Made by a program: the position numbers and the translations under genes
In this document: positions 2 through 15,928 of the stretch, in pieces
Layout: each line of letters opens with the position of its first letter
How positions within the stretch are numbered: position 1 is the first letter of the stretch
The notes under the pieces: generated by a model
Databases searched by the model: none
What the model saw: the letters and a program-made list of their open reading frames with translations, nothing else
Told to the model about the DNA's origin: nothing
Source of the DNA: an uncultured Holophagales bacterium
GTDB lineage: Bacteria > Acidobacteriota > Thermoanaerobaculia > Multivoradales > UBA5704
Assembly (NCBI GenBank): GCA_963842525.1
Contig: CAWJGT010000025.1
Location: 256,001 to 320,000, forward strand
Direction: 5' to 3'
DNA: 64,000 nt

Positions 2-82
2 GACCCGAACGGCTTCGGTCCCAACTGGTCGAACGTGGACGACTACGACATCCCGACCGTGCTGAGGAAGCAGATGGACTGA
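2..82 (+). CDS. ftsZ: Cell division protein FtsZ, C-terminal end (partial)
   Basis: Frame 2 reads DPNGFGPNWSNVDDYDIPTVLRKQMD*, matching the conserved FtsZ C-terminal peptide (DIPxFLRKQ.D). Confidence 0.8.
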   Translation, partial: DPNGFGPNWSNVDDYDIPTVLRKQMD

Positions 83-101
83 CACCGGGTAGACTCTCCT
101 C

Positions 102-704
102 ATGAAGACCACTGACTCCGGCCGGCCCGGGAGGCGGGCTCTGCTCCGCCTCCGCCGCGCATCCGTCCTCCTGTTCCCTCTCCTCCTGGCTGTGCCCGCC
201 GCCGCCCTGGACACCATCTGGCTCGTCCGCCACGCCGAGAAGGTCGAAGACAGCGAGACGGCGAAATGGCAGTTCCTCGACGCCCTCCGTCCGCTCACCC
301 CCGAAGGCACGAAACGGGCAGAGGCGCTCGCGACCCGTCTCAAAGACGCCGGTATCACCGCGGTCTACTCCAGCCGGACCACGCGCACCATCTCCACGGC
401 CCTGCCGCTGGTCCTGTCTGCTCCGGGGATCCGCCTGATCCCGGACGACGACACGATCGAAAAAGACAAACAGGCCGACTTCCTCGCCTGGCTCCGGAAG
501 ACCCATGCGAACGATCGCGCAATCCTGATCGTCGGCCACTCCAACACCATCCCCGTGCTCCTGGCAAAGTTCGGAGCAAAACCCGACTGCTACGAGCGGC
601 TCGGCATCCAGCAGACCCCGCAGGGCCTCATGATCGAAGGCTTTGAGGGCCTGTGGAAGGTGGATGCGAAGAAACTGTCGTGCCAGGGGATCACACGCGA
701 ATAA
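102..704 (+). CDS. Secreted histidine phosphatase (phosphoglycerate mutase/SixA-like) family protein
   Basis: Signal peptide, LVRHAEK catalytic motif, later LIVGHSNT motif. Confidence 0.85.
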   Translation: MKTTDSGRPGRRALLRLRRASVLLFPLLLAVPAAALDTIWLVRHAEKVEDSETAKWQFLDALRPLTPEGTKRAEALATRLKDAGITAVYSSRTTRTISTALPLVLSAPGIRLIPDDDTIEKDKQADFLAWLRKTHANDRAILIVGHSNTIPVLLAKFGAKPDCYERLGIQQTPQGLMIEGFEGLWKVDAKKLSCQGITRE

Positions 705-880
705 TCCCTATATTCATTCACAATACATCCCCATCGCCGCGTAGAGACGCCCCAGTCCACGACCACTTCACTGCCGGCGTGTAAACAGCCGGGGCGTCTC
801 TTGACCTCAGCCACCACCGACGCTGGCAACGTGCCTAGAACTACCCCAATCACTGCCCAAGAACCGGTCCACCGGCAAAG

Positions 881-979
881 GCCCCGGAGGGGCTCACGGC
901 ATGTAGCCCGGGGCCAGAGCGACGAAGGAGCGGCGGCCCCGGGTATGGAAACGAAAATATCCCCAAGCCCCAGAGGGGC
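881..979. repeat. REP-like palindromic element
   Basis: GCCCCGGAGGGGC (881-893) and GCCCCAGAGGGGC (967-979) hairpins flank the inverted pair CCCGGGGCC...GGCCCCGGG. Confidence 0.5.
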
Positions 980-1030
980 GGCAGCAGCTCGCCTTGACGC
1001 GGCCAGACTCTATGGACCACGATCTTGTCA

Positions 1031-1273
1031 ATGATTACGACCGTCACCCAGAAGAACACGGCCACAATACCCGCCGAAGTACGACGGAAGTTTGGGATCA
1101 AGCCCGGCTGTAAGCTCGACTGGCAGCCGATTGAGGACAGAGGCGAGATTCTCGTCAGGGTCATTCCCGACCGTGGAGAGCGTGCGCGCCGCCTGCTGGG
1201 TTCCGGTCGCAAGTTCTCACCGGATTGCGACTCCGTGGCCGATCTTGTGGCAGAGCGCGCTGCGGAAGGTTGA
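1031..1273 (+). CDS. AbrB/MazE/SpoVT-family antitoxin (copy 1)
   Basis: MITTVTQKNTATIPAEVRRKFGIKPG swapped-hairpin motif; near-identical to 2871-3113. Confidence 0.85.
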   Translation: MITTVTQKNTATIPAEVRRKFGIKPGCKLDWQPIEDRGEILVRVIPDRGERARRLLGSGRKFSPDCDSVADLVAERAAEG

Positions 1274-1338
1274 TGGGCTTGCGCTTCCTGCTCGATACCT
1301 CCGCACTGCTTGCCCACTTCCGCAAGGAGCGCGGCACC
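1273..1338 (+). pseudogene. Truncated PIN/VapC toxin (first ~20 codons only)
   Basis: MGLRFLLDTSALLAHFRKERG matches the start of the intact PIN at 3120, then similarity stops where the opposite-strand PIN gene ends. Confidence 0.75.
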
Positions 1339-1341
1339 TCT

Positions 1342-1737
1342 TCAAGGACTCCCCGGCCATTCGGCCCACTCACAGTAGGTCAGCAGGTCACGGTCCCTGG
1401 TCAGCAGAGTCGCTCCGCGTAGCGTTGCCTGGCTGGCGATCAGGCGATCGAAGGGGTCCCGTGTCCACGAGGCGGCGAGTGCGACGTCGATCACCTGAAG
1501 GAAAGGAAGATCGCAGATCTTGAGCGCGATCTCCTTCTCCAGTGTGTTGATGACGTGCTCTCCGGAGAACGTGACGCGGCGGATTTCATAGAGGTACTGG
1601 AGCTCGAGCTTGACCGCGGGAGAGATCAGCAGGTCGCTCTCCTCGAGGCGGGTCCGCACGCTCGCCGGCAGCAGGTTCACACGGTCCGAGAAGAGCCACG
1701 CAACGACATGGGTGTCGAGGTAGATCAGGGGCGCCAT
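1342..1737 (-). CDS. vapC: PIN-domain VapC toxin
   Basis: IYLDTHVVAWL ... RDPFDRLIASQA ... LLTRD PIN motifs. Confidence 0.9.
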   Translation of the reverse strand: MAPLIYLDTHVVAWLFSDRVNLLPASVRTRLEESDLLISPAVKLELQYLYEIRRVTFSGEHVINTLEKEIALKICDLPFLQVIDVALAASWTRDPFDRLIASQATLRGATLLTRDRDLLTYCEWAEWPGSP

Positions 1738-1946
1738 TCTGCGGACCAGTCGATGTGGACCAGATCCTCAGGATCGCCGACGATGAGGTCGCGTGGCTTC
1801 AGGTTCGCCAGCTTGCTCTTGGGCTCGACCGCCGCGATGCGGAGGAGCTTCCCTTTTCGCTCGATGTCGACGGGCACGCCGGTCTCCAGGATCTCGTCCA
1901 GGATCCGGTAGATGTTCTCGCGCAAGGCAGAGGCTCGAAGCGGCAT
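1725..1946 (-). CDS. Phd/YefM-family antitoxin
   Basis: ASALRENIYRILDEILETGVPVDIERKGK Phd fold; overlaps the downstream PIN gene. Confidence 0.85.
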   Translation of the reverse strand: MPLRASALRENIYRILDEILETGVPVDIERKGKLLRIAAVEPKSKLANLKPRDLIVGDPEDLVHIDWSAEWRP

Positions 1947-1972
1947 ACGGGGCACCCCCAAGGCCCGTTCCG

Positions 1973-2015
1973 AGGGTACAGCCAAGTCGTACGAGTGTCA
2001 AGTAGAGGTCGTACG
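1973..2015 (-). promoter_or_regulatory. Sigma70 promoter with TCGTACGA operator palindromes for the phd-vapC pair
   Basis: Minus strand TTGACA (2001-1996), 17 nt, TACCCT; palindromes at 1987-1994 and 2009-2015; duplicated at about 2675-2715. Confidence 0.6.
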
Positions 2016-2237
2016 CCCTAAAGCGCCAAGAAAACCCAAGCCCTTGCCCCTCCAGTCTCGGCGGAAGCGGGTCCACCGCGGGAAACACCTGATCGACACA
2101 TCGCAGGAGCGCTGACCGGGAGGCTTCGTCTGGTCCTAACCAAGAAACTACCCAAGAACCGAACTAGGTGGCTGGCACCCCGGCTGGCTGGGCACACCCT
2201 GTTCAAGAAACGCCGCCGCGGTATCTAACCCTCGCGG

Positions 2238-2632
2238 TGGATCTGCGGCTTCGCCAATGCGGAAGGTGGTGTGCTGGTCATCGGACGCGTTGACCGAGGC
2301 GTAGCCGTCGGGTTGCCGGCCTGGTTGCCCCGGAAGTCACCGAGGAAGCTACAGGCAAAACGCCGGTAGAAACTGGCAAAACGCCGGTAGAAACTGGCAA
2401 AACGCCGGTAGAAACTGGCAAAACGCCGGTAGAAACTGGGAAAATGCCGGTAGAAACCGAAGAGACGCCGGTAGAAACGCCGGACAGGATCGTCGAGCTG
2501 CTTCGTGCAAATCCGTACATGACCCTGGCCGAGGTGGCCGAGGAGATCGGTAAGTCACAGAGGGCCGTGGAGACCGCCAAATTGGTCGGTGAGGGGCGGC
2601 TTCGCTACGTGGGTCCCCGTAAAAGTGGCCGC
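2238..2632 (+). pseudogene. Internally deleted paralog of the AlbA_2/HATPase/wHTH gene
   Basis: WICGFANAEGGVLVIGR (AlbA_2 N-terminus, cf. ~6550) is joined out of frame to a GKTPVET-repeat linker and a wHTH (IVELLRANPYMTLAEVAEEIG...LRYVGPRKSG). Confidence 0.75.
2354..2479 (+). repeat. 21-nt tandem repeat GGCAAAACGCCGGTAGAAACT, 4 exact + 2 degenerate copies
   Basis: Units at 2354, 2375, 2396, 2417, 2438, 2459; encodes GKTPVET heptads. Confidence 0.95.
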
Positions 2633-2870
2633 GCAAGGCAGAGGCTCGAAGCGGCATAGGACCGTTCCCAACGTACAGCTCGGTCGTACGAGTGTCAAGA
2701 GGGAATCGTACGCCCTGAAGTGCGCCAAGAAACCCAAGCCCTTGACCCTCCAGGGCTTAGCGCGTTTTTTATCGGACCCTATGGGGCTGCCCGAACTAGG
2801 TGGCTGGCACCCCGGCCACCTGCACCTACTTACCTTGACGCGGTCTGCTCCATGGAACACAATAGTTTCC

Positions 2871-3113
2871 ATGATTACGACGGTCACCCAGAAGAACATG
2901 GTCACAATACCCGCCGAAGTAGGACGAAAGTTTGGGATCAAGCCTGGGTGGAGGCTCGACTGGCAGCCGGTGGAAGGCAAAGACGAAATTCTCGTCAGGG
3001 TCATTCCCGATCGCGGAGAGCGTGCGCGCCGCCTGCTGGGTTCCGGTCGCAGGTTCTCACCGGATCGCGACTCCGTGGCCGAGCTTGTGGCAGAGCGCGC
3101 TACGGAAGGTTGA
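2871..3113 (+). CDS. AbrB/MazE/SpoVT-family antitoxin (copy 2)
   Basis: MITTVTQKNMVTIPAEVGRKFGIKPG; lies upstream of an intact PIN gene. Confidence 0.9.
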   Translation: MITTVTQKNMVTIPAEVGRKFGIKPGWRLDWQPVEGKDEILVRVIPDRGERARRLLGSGRRFSPDRDSVAELVAERATEG

Positions 3114-3119
3114 TGGGCC

Positions 3120-3539
3120 GTGCGCTTCCTGCTCGATACCTCCGCACTACTTGCCCACTTCCGCAAGGAGCACGGTGGTGCTCGCGTCCAAACGTTGTTC
3201 GAGGAGGGCGACTCCGAGATCCTGGCTGCCAGTATCTCGCTGACCGAGTTTGCCCGGCGTCTGCGCGAGCTGGGCGCAACGGTCGATGAGGCTCGCCGTA
3301 CGGTTGAGGACTACCGAGAGTTGCTGGACGAGGTCGTCTCGGTCGATGAAAAAGTGGCTCTCACCGCCTTCTATATCGTCTGCGAAATGACGGAGCGGCT
3401 ACCCCTTGCCGACGCTCTGATCACAGCGGCCGCTCGCGAACGGGAGGCCCGCCTGGTTCACCGCGATCACCACATGGCGACGATTCCGGCCAGCGTTGTG
3501 GAGCAGATCGACCTCGCGAAGGAACCGGACCCGCGGTGA
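3120..3539 (+). CDS. vapC: PIN-domain VapC toxin
   Basis: FLLDTSALL ... SLTEF ... LPLADALITAAA ... LVHRDHH. Confidence 0.9.
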   Translation: MRFLLDTSALLAHFRKEHGGARVQTLFEEGDSEILAASISLTEFARRLRELGATVDEARRTVEDYRELLDEVVSVDEKVALTAFYIVCEMTERLPLADALITAAAREREARLVHRDHHMATIPASVVEQIDLAKEPDPR

Positions 3540-3731
3540 GGGGCTAATGCCTGTTCACCTCTTCGCCCTGGCCCCGCGTCCGGCGCAGCTTGAGGCCGAA
3601 GATAAGGAGCGCGCCCAAATCTGCCGCTGCAGTTGCCCTTGGGTCAACTGGCTTCCGCTGAAGGGTAGGACTATACTTTTAGCATGAGCCTGCCGAACAG
3701 GTGGAATCTCAAACCGGAAAGGCTAATACCG

Positions 3732-3944
3732 ATGAAACCATTTGTCGCAAGATTTGGGCGTTCAATCTCGCCCAAGACAGCCGGATTTCGCTCCGTGCGG
3801 TACGATGTCGAACGAGAGAGTACTGTGCTAGCCGAAAATTCTCTTCTCGCTATTGAGTCTCCCAACGTCCTATCTGAGGCTACGGGCAGTATGTGCACGA
3901 GAGCTGACGAAGATCCTACGGCTGATGAGGCAACAGACCGGTAA
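3732..3944 (+). CDS. Graspetide (ATP-grasp RiPP) precursor peptide A
   Basis: PFVARF leader (cf. microviridin PFFARFL), YDxExE motif, core TGSMCTRADEDPTADEATDR; upstream of the ATP-grasp ligase; alternative start 3684. Confidence 0.85.
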   Translation: MKPFVARFGRSISPKTAGFRSVRYDVERESTVLAENSLLAIESPNVLSEATGSMCTRADEDPTADEATDR

Positions 3945-3962
3945 TCTGGGAAGGAGAGCAAT

Positions 3963-4166
3963 ATGCGGCCTTTTATAGCGCGATATGCAGTAGCCCCAGA
4001 TCGAAATCCAATTCCCTCGCTGTACAACTACGATCCTGAGCAAGAAATTAGCGTCTCTCGAGGTGAGCCAGTCATCGGAGATCGAGCGCAAGCCATGGCG
4101 CTCACGGGAAGCTTGGTCACCTTGGCTGATAGAGACCCTACTCGGGATGAGGCAACAGACAGGTAA
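3963..4166 (+). CDS. Graspetide precursor peptide B
   Basis: PFIARY leader, YDPEQE, core TGSLVTLADRDPTRDEATDR; stop overlaps the ligase start (TAATG). Confidence 0.88.
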   Translation: MRPFIARYAVAPDRNPIPSLYNYDPEQEISVSRGEPVIGDRAQAMALTGSLVTLADRDPTRDEATDR

Positions 4167-5131
4167 TGATTCTTATAGTTTCCAATACGCAGGACATCAC
4201 ATGTGATTTCGTTGTAAGAGAACTTCGCAGACGGCACAGAGACTTTGCTCGGCTAAACATGGACGAATTTCCTCGGCTCGCGTCAGGTGTTGCAACGGCC
4301 GGAACGGGATTTCCCGAGCGAGCCGAGATAAGATGGTCTAATAGACATAAAGTCCTACGCTTCAGTGATGTCAGCTCTGTTCTCTATCGGAGGCCGGTGC
4401 CGCCCGTACCAGACGATGCCATCCAAGACGAAGCGCTCAGAAAATTCTGTACCGATGAGAGTTATGATTTCTTGCGGGGGCTTTTATTTTCATTGGATTG
4501 TCACTGGATCAGCCATCCAGATGCAATCAGAAGAGCGGAGCACAAACTATACCAAGCTAGAATCGCCAGCAAGGTCGGTCTTACAATGCCACGGACTCTT
4601 GTAACCAACGACCCTGATGAGGTCTTGGGCTTCTTCGATGCATGCTCTGGTAGAATGGTCGCAAAGTGTTTATACATGGGCTTTATCGACAGCAAGAAAG
4701 CCCCGGCAATGATTTTCACCAGTAACGTATCAAGAGAGGATCTTGATGATGTGGAATCGGTTCGGTTTACTCCGACTATATTTCAAGAGTATGTTGACAA
4801 GGAATTCGATTTGCGGGTGACAATAGTAGGTGAGAAGGTTTTTACTGCAAGAATTGACGCAGCGACTCCTCCGGGTACACCAGACTGGCGAGCCTGCGGT
4901 CCCGAGGAACTTTGTCACTCTCCGTACTCTCTACCAGCTTCAATAGAGCGAGCGTGCATCGACTTAGTCCATCTTCTTGAGCTTGACTTTGGCGCGATTG
5001 ATCTTGCAGTAGATAAAGAGGGGAATTTCTTCTTCCTGGAGATTAATCCCAACGGTCAATGGGCATGGCTGGAGGCGATACTTCCAATCAGCGCAGCTCT
5101 CGTGGACCGACTTGAGGAACTGGGGAGATGA
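4166..5131 (+). CDS. MvdC/MvdD-family ATP-grasp RiPP maturase
   Basis: AEHKLYQ, PRTLVTND, IFQEYVDKEFDLRVTIVG, DWR, FGAIDL, FLEINPNGQWAWLE. Confidence 0.92.
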   Translation: MILIVSNTQDITCDFVVRELRRRHRDFARLNMDEFPRLASGVATAGTGFPERAEIRWSNRHKVLRFSDVSSVLYRRPVPPVPDDAIQDEALRKFCTDESYDFLRGLLFSLDCHWISHPDAIRRAEHKLYQARIASKVGLTMPRTLVTNDPDEVLGFFDACSGRMVAKCLYMGFIDSKKAPAMIFTSNVSREDLDDVESVRFTPTIFQEYVDKEFDLRVTIVGEKVFTARIDAATPPGTPDWRACGPEELCHSPYSLPASIERACIDLVHLLELDFGAIDLAVDKEGNFFFLEINPNGQWAWLEAILPISAALVDRLEELGR

Positions 5132-6063
5132 GGTTTACTCGTTACCTTGGCAGGCTACTGCTGAATTTGAAAGGTCGGCTTCCACTAAACGGAGATTGGC
5201 TATTTGTAACTGAAAGCGTTTCAGGCGAGAAGCAGATTGATGCCGCCGATGAATATCAGGCGCCGAGCATGGTGCTGAAACTATTATCTGGGACTGTCAC
5301 GCCCGAGACAACCAAGCTAATATACGAGAGGGTGAAATCCTATGAGGGCACTGTAAACGATATTGCAAATAGGGTCTATGATAAGTCGAAGGTAATTTTT
5401 GGCGCTGCTTCCTTTGCATCAACTATAATTCTGGCTCTTGGATCGACACTCCTTCCTCCCTTGCTCGTGAGCTCAGTTTGGCTCAGAGTCGTCGGCGCCG
5501 CATTGTCGTTCTTTCTTGTTTTTCACCTTAGTCGAGCGTTGATCATCGCGGCCGAGGTTATGATAAGAGAGCTCATGGTCCGCGAAACGCCAGGAGAGCT
5601 GATAGAGTTGGGCGAGAATGATGAAGGCGGCGCTCTTAGAGAGCTGATTGCGAAAGTATTGGCGTATGCGATCCAGACTCAAACACTTGGCCTTGAAAAG
5701 CTCAATCGGCTGATTATTGCGCAACATTCTTTTCGATATGCACTAGTATTTTATTTCGCATTGGCGGTGCTCAGCGTTGTCGTACGTCTTGGCGAAAGCA
5801 ATATTGAGGGTACTAGCGCAGGAGCGGTTGCCGAAGAGATAAAGGACTTGAAGAATAAGGTAGAGGCGACCAGCGCAAGGCAAGGGAAGCTAGCCTCGGC
5901 AGTGGATACTCTGGAGAAGGAACACGCGCTCATACAACGGGAACTGAGGGAATCTATTGAGTTGAGAAGGGCTGAGCTAGACTTTCTACGGATACTCGAG
6001 GCTCAACTAATGAGCGGGTTGGCCAACCGACAGCCTCCCGCTGCCACGAGAAAACAGCCCTGA
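5128..6063 (+). CDS. Hypothetical membrane protein (about 3 TM helices plus a C-terminal coiled coil)
   Basis: ATGA overlap with the ligase; hydrophobic segments; heptad-rich C-terminus; same AT-richer composition as the cassette. Confidence 0.75.
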   Translation: MRFTRYLGRLLLNLKGRLPLNGDWLFVTESVSGEKQIDAADEYQAPSMVLKLLSGTVTPETTKLIYERVKSYEGTVNDIANRVYDKSKVIFGAASFASTIILALGSTLLPPLLVSSVWLRVVGAALSFFLVFHLSRALIIAAEVMIRELMVRETPGELIELGENDEGGALRELIAKVLAYAIQTQTLGLEKLNRLIIAQHSFRYALVFYFALAVLSVVVRLGESNIEGTSAGAVAEEIKDLKNKVEATSARQGKLASAVDTLEKEHALIQRELRESIELRRAELDFLRILEAQLMSGLANRQPPAATRKQP

Positions 6064-6099
6064 AGCTGTTTTTTGAATACATTCTACCCTCCACGCGAG

Positions 6100-6160
6100 C
6101 GACCCGCCGGTCTACGATTTTGGCAGGGCAGGCTTGATGCTGACCTTCCGGGCTGCCCCC
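6100..6160 (+). pseudogene. Fragment duplicated from the AlbA_2/HATPase gene
   Basis: GACCCGCCGGTCTACGATTTTGGCAGGGCAGGCTTGATGCTGACCTTCCG closely matches 7532-7581. Confidence 0.7.
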
Positions 6161-6490
6161 AATACGTTCCACCCGTTCCCATCCCAGCCCGGCAAGACGG
6201 TCCGCTGCAGCGGGGTGGCGGCAGTGCTGGGGCTGGTTGAGGGGAAACTGCCACGCGGGCACCTCGCCCGCTCGACCAGAGCGTCAAGTTCCCGGCTCAT
6301 GGCTTTTCACCTAGCACCGGCCGACATCCCCCGAACTCTGGTATCCTCATCCCAATACGGCTAACCGGTCGGCACCCGTATTCGGACTGCGCCGCCGACG
6401 CAGGATGGGGTTGGGCTGCGCAATGGTATGGACGCCGGCCGCCCCCTACGCGCCGATCAGGAGCCCGCTCACTGGGAGGATTCGCCTGGT

Positions 6491-7891
6491 ATGAAGGAAA
6501 GCCAGCAGGTCGAATGGAAGAGCTCGTGGCGTGACGAGTATCTGCGCTGGATCTGCGGCTTCGCCAATGCCGCGGGCGGTGTGCTGGTCCTCGGGCGGAA
6601 CGATAAGGGCGTAGCCGTCGGCGTGGACAATTCCCGCAAACTGCTGGAAGACCTGCCCAACAAGATCCGGGACGTGCTGGGCATCATGGCCGATGTCCAC
6701 CTCGTCAAGGAGGCGGGCAAGGAGCTGGTCGAAATCCACGTCGAGCCGTATCCCAGCCCCGTCAGCTACAAGGGGGAATACCACTACCGCAGCGGCAGCA
6801 CCAAGCAAGAGCTGAAGGGTCCGGCGCTGGAGCGGTTCCTGCTGAAGAAGCGCGGGCGTCACTGGGATGATGCGCCGGAGCCCTCGTTCACCGCACGATC
6901 ATGCAGCGCGGCAGCCTTGCGGCTGTTCAGGCAAAGGGCTGCAAAGAGCGGGCGCATGGACCCGATGGTGTTACGAGACAGCCGGGAGGTCGTTCTCGGC
7001 AACCTGGAGCTGGCCGAAAGGCATGGCCTCAAGCGCGCCGCCTGCCTGCTGTTCTCCGACCGCCCCGAGCAGTATGTGAGCGGCTCCTGGATCAAGATCG
7101 GCTTCTTCGTGACGGATGACGACCTCCGCTACCAAGACGAGGTGCACGGGAGCCTCTTCGAGCAGGTGGAAAAGACTCTCGAGCTCCTGCACACGAAGTA
7201 TCTCAAGGCCTACATCAGCTACCAGGGCTTGCATCGGCGGGAGACCTTCCTCTTCCCAACTGCCGCACTGCGCGAGGCCCTGCTCAACGCCGTGGTGCAC
7301 AAGGACTACAGCAGCGGCATCCCCATCCAGATCAGCGTGTATGACGATCAGATCGTCCTCTGGAATCCCGGTGACCTGCCGGAGAACTGGACGCTGAAAA
7401 AGCTGCTGGGCAAACACCCGTCCTGTCCCTTCAACCCACTGGTGGCGAATGCCTTCTTCCGGGCCGGCTACATCGAATCCTGGGGACGTGGCATCGAGAA
7501 GATCCACCGCGAGTGCCGGGAGCACGGGATCGATCCGCCGGTCTACGATTTCGGCATGGCGGGCCTGATGCTGACCTTCCGCGCCGACCCTGCGCACCTG
7601 CAAGCCTCTGCTCCGGAACTGGGCAGGGGCACTACCCCAATCACTACCCAAGAAACCGCCGGTACTACCCAAGAAACTACCCAAGAAACCGCCGGTACTA
7701 CCCAAGAAACTACCCAAGAAAGGGTTCTTGCTTTGTTGCGTGCCCAACCCTCGATTACTCGAAGGGAACTGGCAGGTAGACTGGGCTTAAGCGACAATGG
7801 CATCAAGTACCACTTGGAGAGGATGAAGACTGCCGGAGTGATTCGCCACGTGGGCGCAACCAAGTCCGGAAATTGGGAGGTCCTGAAGTGA
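6491..7891 (+). CDS. AlbA_2 (Schlafen-like) + HATPase_c_4 (RecG-C-like) + wHTH protein
   Basis: ESQQVEWKSSW, ICGFANAAGGVLVLG, ALREALLNAVVHKDY, IESWGRGI, TTQETAG repeats, C-terminal wHTH. Confidence 0.9.
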   Translation: MKESQQVEWKSSWRDEYLRWICGFANAAGGVLVLGRNDKGVAVGVDNSRKLLEDLPNKIRDVLGIMADVHLVKEAGKELVEIHVEPYPSPVSYKGEYHYRSGSTKQELKGPALERFLLKKRGRHWDDAPEPSFTARSCSAAALRLFRQRAAKSGRMDPMVLRDSREVVLGNLELAERHGLKRAACLLFSDRPEQYVSGSWIKIGFFVTDDDLRYQDEVHGSLFEQVEKTLELLHTKYLKAYISYQGLHRRETFLFPTAALREALLNAVVHKDYSSGIPIQISVYDDQIVLWNPGDLPENWTLKKLLGKHPSCPFNPLVANAFFRAGYIESWGRGIEKIHRECREHGIDPPVYDFGMAGLMLTFRADPAHLQASAPELGRGTTPITTQETAGTTQETTQETAGTTQETTQERVLALLRAQPSITRRELAGRLGLSDNGIKYHLERMKTAGVIRHVGATKSGNWEVLK

Positions 7892-7906
7892 CCCTCGCGC
7901 AGACAT

Positions 7907-8234
7907 GACCTGCGACGTAAGGCAGCGGACCTGCGGGCGTGCAGAAGCGGACCCGCAGGTCCGTCCACATGACCCGCAGGTCAGCCCTCGTGACCCGCAG
8001 CTTCGTCAGCCGGCCCTGCAGGTCAGCCTGCGCGACCTGCGGGTCAACCCACTTGCCCCGCGCGTCAACCCGTGTGACCCGCAGGTTGGAGTGCGTGACC
8101 CGCAGGTCAGCCCGAGTGACCTGCGGGTCCATCCACGCACGCCGCAGGTCCGTCAGCGCACGCCGCAGGTCCGTCGGCGCACGCCGCAGGTCCGTCGGCG
8201 CACGCCGCAGGTCCGTCGGCGCACGCCGCAGCGG
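7907..8234. repeat. 21-nt-period array with quasi-palindromic core GACC(C/T)GC(A/G)GGTC, about 16 units
   Basis: Cores at 7907, 7928, then every 21 nt from 7950 to 8223; later units become ACGCCGCAGGTCCGTCGGCGC. Confidence 0.9.
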
Positions 8235-8525
8235 CTACACCGCATGGAGCACGATCTCCGCCGGATCTTCCGGGCTCTTCAGGATGCGTACGATCTGGGT
8301 GCGTAGACGCACCGGGTCCGCCGGTGGCTGCTCCAGGTCCGTCCACAGGGCGAACCACCTGCCGCCAAAGCAGACGACCTGCAACGCAGCCTCGTCGGGC
8401 GTGTACGCGGCCGTGGCATCGGCCGGGCTGAACTGGATCTGAACGACGCGGTCGTACAGTCGCCGGCGCAGCGCTTCGCTGAACCGATCGAGGTCCAACA
8501 GGATAGACTGGGACACGTCGGGCAT
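8235..8525 (-). CDS. Small hypothetical protein (96 aa)
   Basis: AGGAGG RBS before ATG 8525; MPDVSQSILLDLDRFSEALRRRLYDRVVQ...; divergent from the XRE gene. Confidence 0.65.
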   Translation of the reverse strand: MPDVSQSILLDLDRFSEALRRRLYDRVVQIQFSPADATAAYTPDEAALQVVCFGGRWFALWTDLEQPPADPVRLRTQIVRILKSPEDPAEIVLHAV

Positions 8526-14270: not shown

Positions 14271-15928
14271 GTATCTGTTTACCGCCCTAGTGCCGCCTTC
14301 CCCGAGCGGTGGCACGTCCGCAAGGGCTTGAAGTTCTCTTCTCGGCATGGTCTAATGTCTTTCAGGCATGCCGACTTACGAGGAACTCCTTCAAGAGAAC
14401 TCTGAGCTTCGCCAAGACAACGGTGAGCTTCGCCAGCGGGTGGAGGAGCAGGAGCGCCAGATTGCGCACCTGAAGCGCCGAATCGTCGATCTGGAGAAAC
14501 TTGTCGAGGAGCTACGGCGCCGGGGCAAACGCCAGGCTGCCCCCTTCTCGAAGGGAGATCCGAGCGAGGATCCCAAGTCTCCAGGGCGCAAAGCCGGGGA
14601 TCAATATGGTCAGCAAGCGACTCGAGCTGTGCCCGATCACGTCGACGAAACCATCGTGGTGGAGTGCCCGCTGTATTGTGAGCACTGTGGGGGTCAGGTC
14701 ATTCCGCAGGGCGAAGCTCGCCAGTATCAGACCGATCTGCCGCCGATTCGGCCGGTGACGACGGAGTTCATCCTCCATTATGGGAAGTGCTCGGCATGTG
14801 GCCGGGAAGCTGTGGGGCGTCACCCGCGCCAGACTTCCCAGGCGTTCCGGGTCGGCAACGTGCAACTCGGTCCAAACGTGTTGGGGCTCGCCGCCTGGCT
14901 CAACAAGGTCGGAGGCTTGAGCTACGGCAAGATCGCCGCGTTGCTGAAGGAGCTGGCTGGACTGTCTGTGTCGCGCTCGGCCCTGTGCCGCGCGCTGCTT
15001 CGCATGAGTAAGAAGCTGGAGCCCTTGTACGAGGAGCTGAAGGCGAAGATCCGGAGCTCTCCTGTGGTGTACCCGGACGAGACGGGCTGGCGGGAGGGGG
15101 GCTATAGCGTGTGGTTGTGGGTGTTCACCAATCGCAGCGAGACGGTCTACAGCATCCAGCCGGGTCGTGGCTATGCCGAGGCCTCTGAGGTCCTGGGGGA
15201 GGGCTTTGTCGGCGTGCTGGTGGCTGATGGTTGGGCTCCCTATCAGAAATTTGAAGAAGCGACTCATCAGACCTGTCTGGCGCATCTGTTGCGCCGTTGC
15301 GAGGAGCTGCTGGAGAAGGCGACAGGGGGTGCGGTGCGCTTTCCTCGGGCGGTGAAAGAGATCCTGCAGGCCGCCTTGGAGGCGCGAGATCAGCGGGACG
15401 CGGGCAAGCTCAGCGGCGAGGCGCTGGAGAAGGTCAAGCAGGACTTGGAGCTTCCAGATGGAAAGGCGTCTGTCGGGGCAGTTCACGAACCCCGACAACC
15501 AGCGTCTGGCTCAGCATTTGATACGTCACCAGGAGCAGCTGTTTGTCTTCCTGGAACGCACGGATGTGGAGGCGACCAATTGGCCGGCCGAACAAGGGAT
15601 TCGCCCGGCGGTCATCAACCGCAAGACATCTGGGGGAAATCGGACGGCCGAGGGGTCCCAGGCGCAAGCGGTCTTGATGAGTGCCCTGCGCACATTTCAG
15701 CAACACCAAGTCGGGACACTCGAGATCTTGCCCCAGCTTCTGCGCAGCCCCCAGTCACCCAAGCTTGAGGCAATACTTCCTGCGTCACAGCCACCGTAAC
15801 AGTTCTCGCCACGAGTTATCCGTGGCTCCAGGTCGGTAGCCGCTCGCCCTCGTCAGGTCGCCTGGCCAGCGCGGACGTGTGTCCAGGGAAAACCTTCCCC
15901 AAAAGTGCCGCTGACGGTAAACAGATAC
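14271..15928 (+). mobile_element. IS66-family (single-ORF, ISBst12-like) insertion sequence
   Basis: Perfect 14-bp terminal IRs GTATCTGTTTACCG (14271-14284 / 15915-15928); 8-bp TSD GCCTCCGG at 14263-14270 and 15929-15936. Confidence 0.93.
14368..15799 (+). CDS. IS66 transposase, frameshifted at about 15454
   Basis: Coiled coil, CxxC zinc finger, DETGW, ADGW, CLAHLLR; continues in another frame with ATNWPAEQGIRPAVINRKTSGG. Confidence 0.9.

Follow-up and report, generated by a model that had tools for sequence, protein, structure and literature searches.

The window analysed here, a stretch of 64,000 nucleotides from the forward strand of contig CAWJGT010000025.1 (positions 256,001 to 320,000) of an uncultured Holophagales bacterium, very probably carries a compact graspetide cassette that was acquired horizontally and consists of four genes with the same orientation and coupled translation. 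The cassette is real and probably functional. The genes, all on the plus strand, were taken from the list of open reading frames (ORFs) and the sequence, and encode precursor P1 (3732-3944, 70 aa), precursor P2 (3963-4166, 67 aa), an ATP-grasp graspetide synthetase, hereafter the ligase (4166-5131, 321 aa), and a membrane protein (5128-6063, 311 aa). The stop codon TAA of P2 (4164-4166) and the ATG of the ligase (4166-4168) have one base in common in a TAATG junction, and the ATG of the membrane-protein gene overlaps the ligase stop in an ATGA junction. Putative, purine-rich Shine-Dalgarno sequences were read on the plus strand at 3716-3722 (GGAAAGG, 9 nt 5′ of the P1 start) and at 3948-3956 (GGGAAGGAG, 6 nt 5′ of the P2 start). 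The sequence-only reading had proposed two tandem precursors of about 70 aa and one ligase coupled to P2 through TAATG. Its coordinates, motifs and residue counts were all correct and the coupling was borne out by the sequence, but the coupled fourth gene had been overlooked.

Precursor peptides and the core family

Both precursors begin with a leader of the form M(K/R)PF(V/I)AR(F/Y), followed by YDxExE (MKPFVARF and YDVERE in P1, MRPFIARY and YDPEQE in P2), and end in a conserved 20-aa core, TGSMCTRADEDPTADEATDR in P1 and TGSLVTLADRDPTRDEATDR in P2. These shared elements had been described before and were present in both ORFs, as read from the ORF list, the sequence and a homologue alignment. 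Each core contains four Thr, one Ser and no Lys, with six acidic residues in P1 and five in P2. Of the 20 core residues, 15 are shared between P1 and P2, against an identity of only 72% in the underlying DNA. The segments PFVARF and PFIARY occupy residues 3-8 and match the graspetide precursor leader motif Phhx(1,2)h, given in the accessible text of PMC8939145, within the roughly 30 N-terminal residues in which it is expected. This leader motif, together with the conserved Thr/Ser and Asp/Glu residues of the core, upheld the assignment of the small ORFs as graspetide precursors. In an AlphaFold2 model, P2 had a helix at residues 4-8 and strands at 22-24 and 29-32, with the core at lower confidence.

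The same arrangement recurred elsewhere. From genome and metagenome scans, 160 related loci were kept, and the ligases of seven of them were 75-48.5% identical to that of the window (L081 75%, L082 55%, L083 54%, L084 52%, L038 50%, L001 49% and L118 49%), followed by a gap to the next locus at 42.8%. The five of these seven loci with enough flank encoded two, two, two, three and four small ORFs with the same leader and C-terminal core, whereas L083 (348 bases before the ligase) and L118 (starting inside the ligase) had too little flank to show precursors. With the window included, the leader and core were found in 15 precursors at six loci. L081 had a counterpart of P1 of the same length and type; between this locus and the window, the P1 core showed nine synonymous and six non-synonymous codon differences of 22, and the P2 core eight and five, respectively. 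In L038, four tandem precursors of the family (7105-7940) lay downstream of the membrane gene and not upstream of the ligase.

A precursor profile built from a 17-sequence alignment was scored against 1.84 billion representative proteins, yielding 187 cluster representatives at E<=1e-3 and 47 at E<=1e-10. Since the leader and core recur in 15 precursors and 187 profile matches, the observation in the window exceeds chance. In the 17-precursor alignment, P3 (17/17), D58, D62, E63, D66 and R67 were invariant, and Y23, E28, T48, T53 and T60 were nearly so. The C-terminal consensus of the family was T-G-S/T-x-x-T-x-A-x-x-D-P-T-x-D-E-x-T-D-R, and the exact C-terminal pattern D[PA][TS]xDExxDR was present in 120 of 151 fetched proteins, the remainder being mostly one residue or a short tail off.

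The core logo comprised 157 cores anchored on DxTxDExx[D/E], an anchor found in 152 of 153 proteins, which itself fixes positions 11 (D), 13 (T/S), 15 (D), 16 (E) and 19 (D/E; D in 153 cores and E in 4). Among the positions not set by the anchor, position 1 was T in 133 cores and S in 14 (147/157), position 3 was S in 120 and T in 37 (157/157), position 6 was T in 154 and S in 3 (157/157), and position 20 was R in 149 of 157, being the last residue of the protein in 139/157. Out of the same 157 cores, position 2 was G in 119, position 8 was A in 117, position 12 was P in 134, and position 18 was T in 106 and S in 22. Across the family, the conserved residues include four hydroxyl donors and four acidic acceptors; Lys is not among them. 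The earlier description of the core as Lys-free held for the precursors of the window but not for the family, in which position 7 is variable and was Lys in 49 of 157 cores, Arg, Glu and Ala being common there too. Since Lys was confined to this variable position, a lactam is not a conserved feature. Two or four core copies were present within one precursor in P0132, P0135 and P0250, and in P0250 the terminal D-R of the core was replaced by T-E.

A full-text literature search, for which figures and supplementary motif tables were beyond reach, returned no description of the T-G-S/T...D-E-x-T-D-R core motif. The accessible parts of two catalogues report 43 network groups with more than 21,000 predicted graspetides (PMC13097080) and 174 precursor families (PMC8939145), and the accessible main text of the latter makes no mention of Planctomycetes, Acidobacteria, Leptospira, Ignavibacteria or Orenia. 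Family members deposited in NCBI are probably already inside these catalogues. As far as text searches reach, the results support a conserved, widespread core family that is uncharacterised in the accessible literature.

Ligase, membrane protein and predicted chemistry

The ligase matched PF21068, the pre-ATP-grasp domain of MvdD, with 41.5 bits (cut-off 27), and could be aligned end to end with the solved microviridin ligases AMdnB, MdnB, MdnC and CdnC (E 1e-45 to 7e-36). The PDB match to AMdnB covered residues 2-316 (E 1.2e-45) and that to MdnB had E 2e-44, while PsnB was a distant match only (E 4.6e-6). Together with the matches to maturase models given below, these results substantiated its description as an MvdC/MvdD-type ligase. 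In an alignment of 31 close homologues, the invariant residues included K127, K167, K212, R217, D279, E292 and N294, which we take to be the ATP-grasp catalytic residues. A word-based protein search found 2567 relatives of the ligase, the nearest with 79% and 75% identity, one of them from a Thermoanaerobaculia metagenome-assembled genome.

The ligases of the window and its close relatives, designated type A, formed a single clade in a FastTree phylogeny (7 of 170 rows, SH-like support 100), from which L118 (match under 250 aa) and L161 (the window itself) had been left out. The neighbours of this clade in the tree were ligases from loci encoding TxT....ExDD repeats; the corresponding regular expression was present in 94 of 171 loci and in none of six type-A loci. 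Expressed in the form used for networks, the alignment scores of the window ligase were 86-151 inside the clade and at best 69.95 outside it, while the best scores of the other six clade members with ligases of TxT....ExDD loci were 70.6-76.0. The similarity network of PMC13097080 used a threshold of 70 according to its accessible text, and at this value single linkage would probably merge the type-A clade into a larger group. Placing the ligase in such a network and comparing the core with published motifs, as had been suggested earlier, thus gave a divided result: the ligase may fall inside an existing group, whereas the core is unlike the TxT....ExDD motif of the nearest clades.

The membrane protein contains an N-terminal LPLNGDWLFVT motif, an RDKAK segment, hydrophobic helices and a C-terminal coiled coil, and its invariant residues in the homologue alignment include K15, G22, D23 and W24 (LPLNGDWLFVT) and D85, K86 and K88. 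Its AlphaFold2 model, based on an 11-sequence alignment, was all-helical with a mean pLDDT of 77.5, and the hydrophobic stretches of the model, read without a topology tool, suggest about three membrane-spanning helices. The named sources of two homologues were a Thermoanaerobaculia genome, with locus tags adjacent to those of the ligase, and Leptospira sanjuanensis, with both genes on one contig. In each of the seven related loci, the membrane gene immediately followed the ligase (E 3e-91 to 9e-8), and the best other locus had E 3.1. A membrane-protein profile matched the ORF immediately following the ligase at 76 of 160 loci and an ORF elsewhere in four more; 11 loci had no room after the ligase and 69 had no match. 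The wider matches run through the membrane core, at profile positions of about 45-225. The membrane proteins therefore constitute a family broadly associated with graspetide loci of this branch, of which the protein in the window is a divergent representative. An uncharacterised membrane-protein cluster specific to thuringinin loci, with a proposed transport role, is described in the accessible text of PMC8939145, and the family found here appears to be that cluster. In view of its association with these loci, the membrane protein is a candidate exporter, immunity protein or partner, its most likely task being to export the product or to protect the producer.

By homology with known systems, the PF(V/I)AR(F/Y) helix and the YDxExE segment of the leader would be recognised by the single ligase, with the leader helix docking on it. 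The ligase would then phosphorylate Asp/Glu residues of the core with ATP, and Thr/Ser hydroxyls would attack to form omega-ester macrolactones. Family conservation points to T1, S/T3, T6 and T13 as candidate donors, with T/S18 as a possible fifth, and to D11, D15, E16 and D19 as candidate acceptors. With four conserved donors and four conserved acceptors, at most four esters could form on conserved positions. The earlier proposal of ester-only chemistry agrees with these positions and with the lack of a family-wide Lys; the conserved positions permit esters only, to which a non-native thioester via Cys5 of P1 may be an exception. Because T13 is flanked by acceptors, some conserved residues would be left unlinked in a purely nested hairpin. 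As an uncomputed working guess, a nested stem of T6-D11 and S3/T1-D15/E16/D19 would be combined with a T13-E16 or T13-D19 link. The boundary between leader and core may follow the conserved T-G.

Comparison with known graspetides

The microviridin systems (Lee group 1; MdnB/MdnC, AMdnB, CdnC) resemble that of the window in ligase fold, domain order, PFFARFL-like leader and, as predicted here, side-chain cross-linking. The microviridin core motif TxKxPSDx(D/E)(D/E) differs from the window core, which is without a conserved Lys and ends the protein in D-R, and the regular expression T.K.PSD matched two other loci but not the window. Whereas microviridin systems have an ester ligase and an amide ligase, the window cassette encodes one ligase, and the microviridin acetyltransferase and ABC transporter were absent from the two annotated genes neighbouring the cassette in a Pfam scan. 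The TTxxxxEE repeats that characterise plesiocin (group 2) according to the accessible text of PMC11626197 are not present in the window cores, and the plesiocin ligase PsnB is the distant match given above. Direct reading of both cores thus agreed with the earlier statement that they fit neither TxKxPSD nor TTxxxxEE.

The nearest ligase clades, at 40-43% identity, belong to the loci encoding TxT....ExDD repeats, termed type B, which appear to be thuringinin-like (Lee groups 3/5/6; in the accessible text of PMC8939145, cluster 13 of the precursors and cluster 18 of the membrane proteins). These loci share with the window a two-part leader, consisting of Phh.R/K.h and then YDxExxhW/V, as well as a related membrane protein directly downstream of the ligase. 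However, their precursors contain one to four TxT....ExDD repeats, whereas those of the window have one 20-residue C-terminal core with another residue pattern, and the membrane protein of the window is extended by an NGDW region at its N-terminus and a coiled coil at its C-terminus.

The graspimiditides (group 13) combine Strep_pep precursors with TIGR04187 ligases. TIGR04187 was the best NCBIfam model for the window ligase, though below its cut-off, and P2 weakly matched Pfam Strep_pep through its leader alone (E 0.01), also below cut-off; the nearest clusters to P2 in the ESM Atlas were likewise Strep_pep (score 0.86), which provides a lead only. A graspimiditide-type PIMT O-methyltransferase was not found with Pfam or NCBIfam in the cassette genes or the two annotated neighbours, and the long donor-loop-acceptor layout of these peptides, as described in the accessible part of 10.1101/2023.06.21.545981, is absent from the window core. 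Thatisin (group 16) undergoes isomerism at Asp14-Pro15 according to the accessible text of PMC10849128, and the window family has a conserved D11-P12. Group 16 co-occurs with NHLM-type transporters and domains of unknown function in the accessible text of PMC13097080, and neither was found at the window. A relation to group 10, whose loci often include a DNA helicase according to PMC13097080, may be considered, given that HATPase_c_4 in the gene next to the cassette is described in Pfam as 'putative ATP-dependent DNA helicase recG C-terminal'.

Genomic context and competing readings

The cassette lies in a low-GC island (3600-6090, no strand assigned), with a GC content of 0.50, whereas the left and right flanks have 0.63 and 0.65, respectively. 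Cassette GC was also lower than that of the flanks in L081 (0.49 vs 0.64 and 0.63), L082 (0.39 vs 0.46 and 0.48) and L001 (0.29 vs 0.37). The cassette was not found in 40 relatives of the host, in which the best ligase match was 39% identical, and no ligase match at E<=1e-70 was obtained in 400 other genomes sampled from the phylum. These data are most simply explained by horizontal acquisition. The host genome itself (9.95 Mb, G000) contains three further graspetide-type ligases (C3:1649078-1649974, C33:18033-18935 and C1:709907-710836), which are 31-32% identical to the window ligase and cluster in the tree with ligases of close relatives.

Around the insertion site, the DNA is rearranged and contains duplications and gene fragments. 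A MazE/AbrB antitoxin gene and the start of a PIN toxin gene are duplicated at 981-1334 and 2822-3175, 1.84 kb apart and with 89-93% identity. PIN genes are located at 1342-1737 on the minus strand and 3120-3539 on the plus strand, with three PIN-type toxin-antitoxin modules within 3.5 kb. An intact Schlafen AlbA_2/HATPase_c_4/HTH gene is located at 6428-7891, and AlbA_2-type fragments at 2235-2315 and 6092-6160 match its residues 40-66 (81%) and 366-388 (83%), respectively; the latter adjoins the right edge of the low-GC island. Between the two fragments lie the cassette and one of the toxin-antitoxin copies, an arrangement suggestive of a paralogue disrupted by insertions. The region also contains a 21-nt tandem repeat in six copies (2323-2490) and 33-nt repeats inside the AlbA_2 gene (7628-7726), which encode a TTQETAG-type repeat and have related copies at 837-869 and 2132-2164.

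Several results weigh against a functional, horizontally acquired graspetide cassette. The matches of the ligase to the maturase models TIGR04187 (E 5.9e-78, 262.2 bits, curated cut-off 350), TIGR04185 (E 1.5e-65, 221.4 bits, cut-off 425) and TIGR04184 (E 2.2e-60, 204.5 bits, cut-off 475) were all below the curated cut-offs, which places the ligase in the superfamily but outside the three named families. The proposed ring pattern is based on residue conservation alone. No peptidase, for the leader or otherwise, and no ABC/PCAT transporter is encoded in the cassette. The membrane protein matched no Pfam, NCBIfam or PADLOC family, its model gave generic long-helix matches and none at E<=1e-3 in a Foldseek search of the PDB, and only unnamed clusters were found in the ESM Atlas; its role is guesswork because it has no recognisable family or fold. 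As for transfer, cassette and flank GC were equal in L038, and a lower cassette GC could partly be due to amino-acid make-up.

The neighbouring genes raise the question of whether the cassette is instead a mobile conflict or defence module residing in defence islands, with a peptide directed against phage or competitor proteins (e.g., as a protease inhibitor) or a membrane protein acting as effector or immunity partner. We consider this unlikely. It would fit the sporadic distribution and low GC of the cassette and the defence-type or mobile neighbours in all three loci with long flanks giving family matches. In the window these are the MazE/PIN pairs upstream and, downstream, the Schlafen AlbA_2/HATPase_c_4 gene and an IS66-family transposase gene (14368-15768; DDE_Tnp_IS66 108 bits and zf-IS66) 8 kb from the cassette. 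In L081, HNH_2 endonuclease genes flank the cassette on both sides (2316-3233 and 6049-7011), and in L082 it lies between an E1-E2/JAB fusion (PADLOC E1-E2, 260 bits; CBASS-type) with a patatin-like phospholipase gene upstream (82-3473) and an SNF2/ResIII helicase gene (ZorD/DpdE-like) downstream (6068-8374). Protease-inhibiting and antiviral graspetides have been reported, with phage protection suggested as a natural role, in the accessible text of PMC11626197. However, toxin-antitoxin genes, nucleases and helicases typify any variable region, and with three contexts and no statistical control, a conflict role and mere residence in a variable region are inseparable. Moreover, none of the four cassette proteins matched a PADLOC model, the three scanned flanking ORFs of L038 matched no Pfam family, and no type-A clade member was found on IMG/VR contigs (19 loci, at most 37% identity) or PLSDB plasmids (at most 38% identity). 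The full combination of a widespread, mobile and uncharacterised family, a new, partly interlocked four-ester topology with T13 among the acceptors, and an NGDW membrane protein forming a conflict or anti-phage module in defence islands is similarly improbable.

It is very unlikely that the cassette arrived by horizontal transfer and has since fallen silent or begun to decay, leaving no product in its host. In favour of such a relic, the island looks foreign, and its surroundings are rearranged, with duplications and gene fragments. A scan for promoters and terminators returned sites not above the level of shuffled sequence and no sigma-70-like promoter 5′ of P1, but it used one consensus, which may not suit this organism. 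Against a relic, the four reading frames are intact and coupled, and all family-invariant residues are kept in the precursors, the ligase and the membrane protein. A sequencing-run search listed no RNA run, and one soil-metagenome DNA run contained a fifth of the sampled words. That the small ORFs are not substrates and the ligase modifies another target, as RimK-type ligases do, is scarcely credible. Weak matches of the ligase to RimK-family models (E 2e-14) speak for it, but models of maturases for ribosomally synthesised and post-translationally modified peptides score far better (E 6e-78), and small ORFs with the graspetide leader motif accompany the type-A ligases in six of six loci having enough flank.

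The graspetide cassette and its core family therefore represent a sound genome-mining lead rather than a surprise, and are of moderate interest. Graspetides are valued as compact multicyclic scaffolds and protease inhibitors, and to our knowledge each new core pattern has so far led to a new ring topology. The family now comprises no fewer than 187 representative sequences and has a precise logo, a ligase clade of its own and a dedicated membrane partner, so that substrates and mutants can be chosen directly. The occurrence of the same 2.4-kb cassette, with a GC content below that of its surroundings, in unrelated phyla beside defence-type genes poses a testable question on the cellular role of such peptides.

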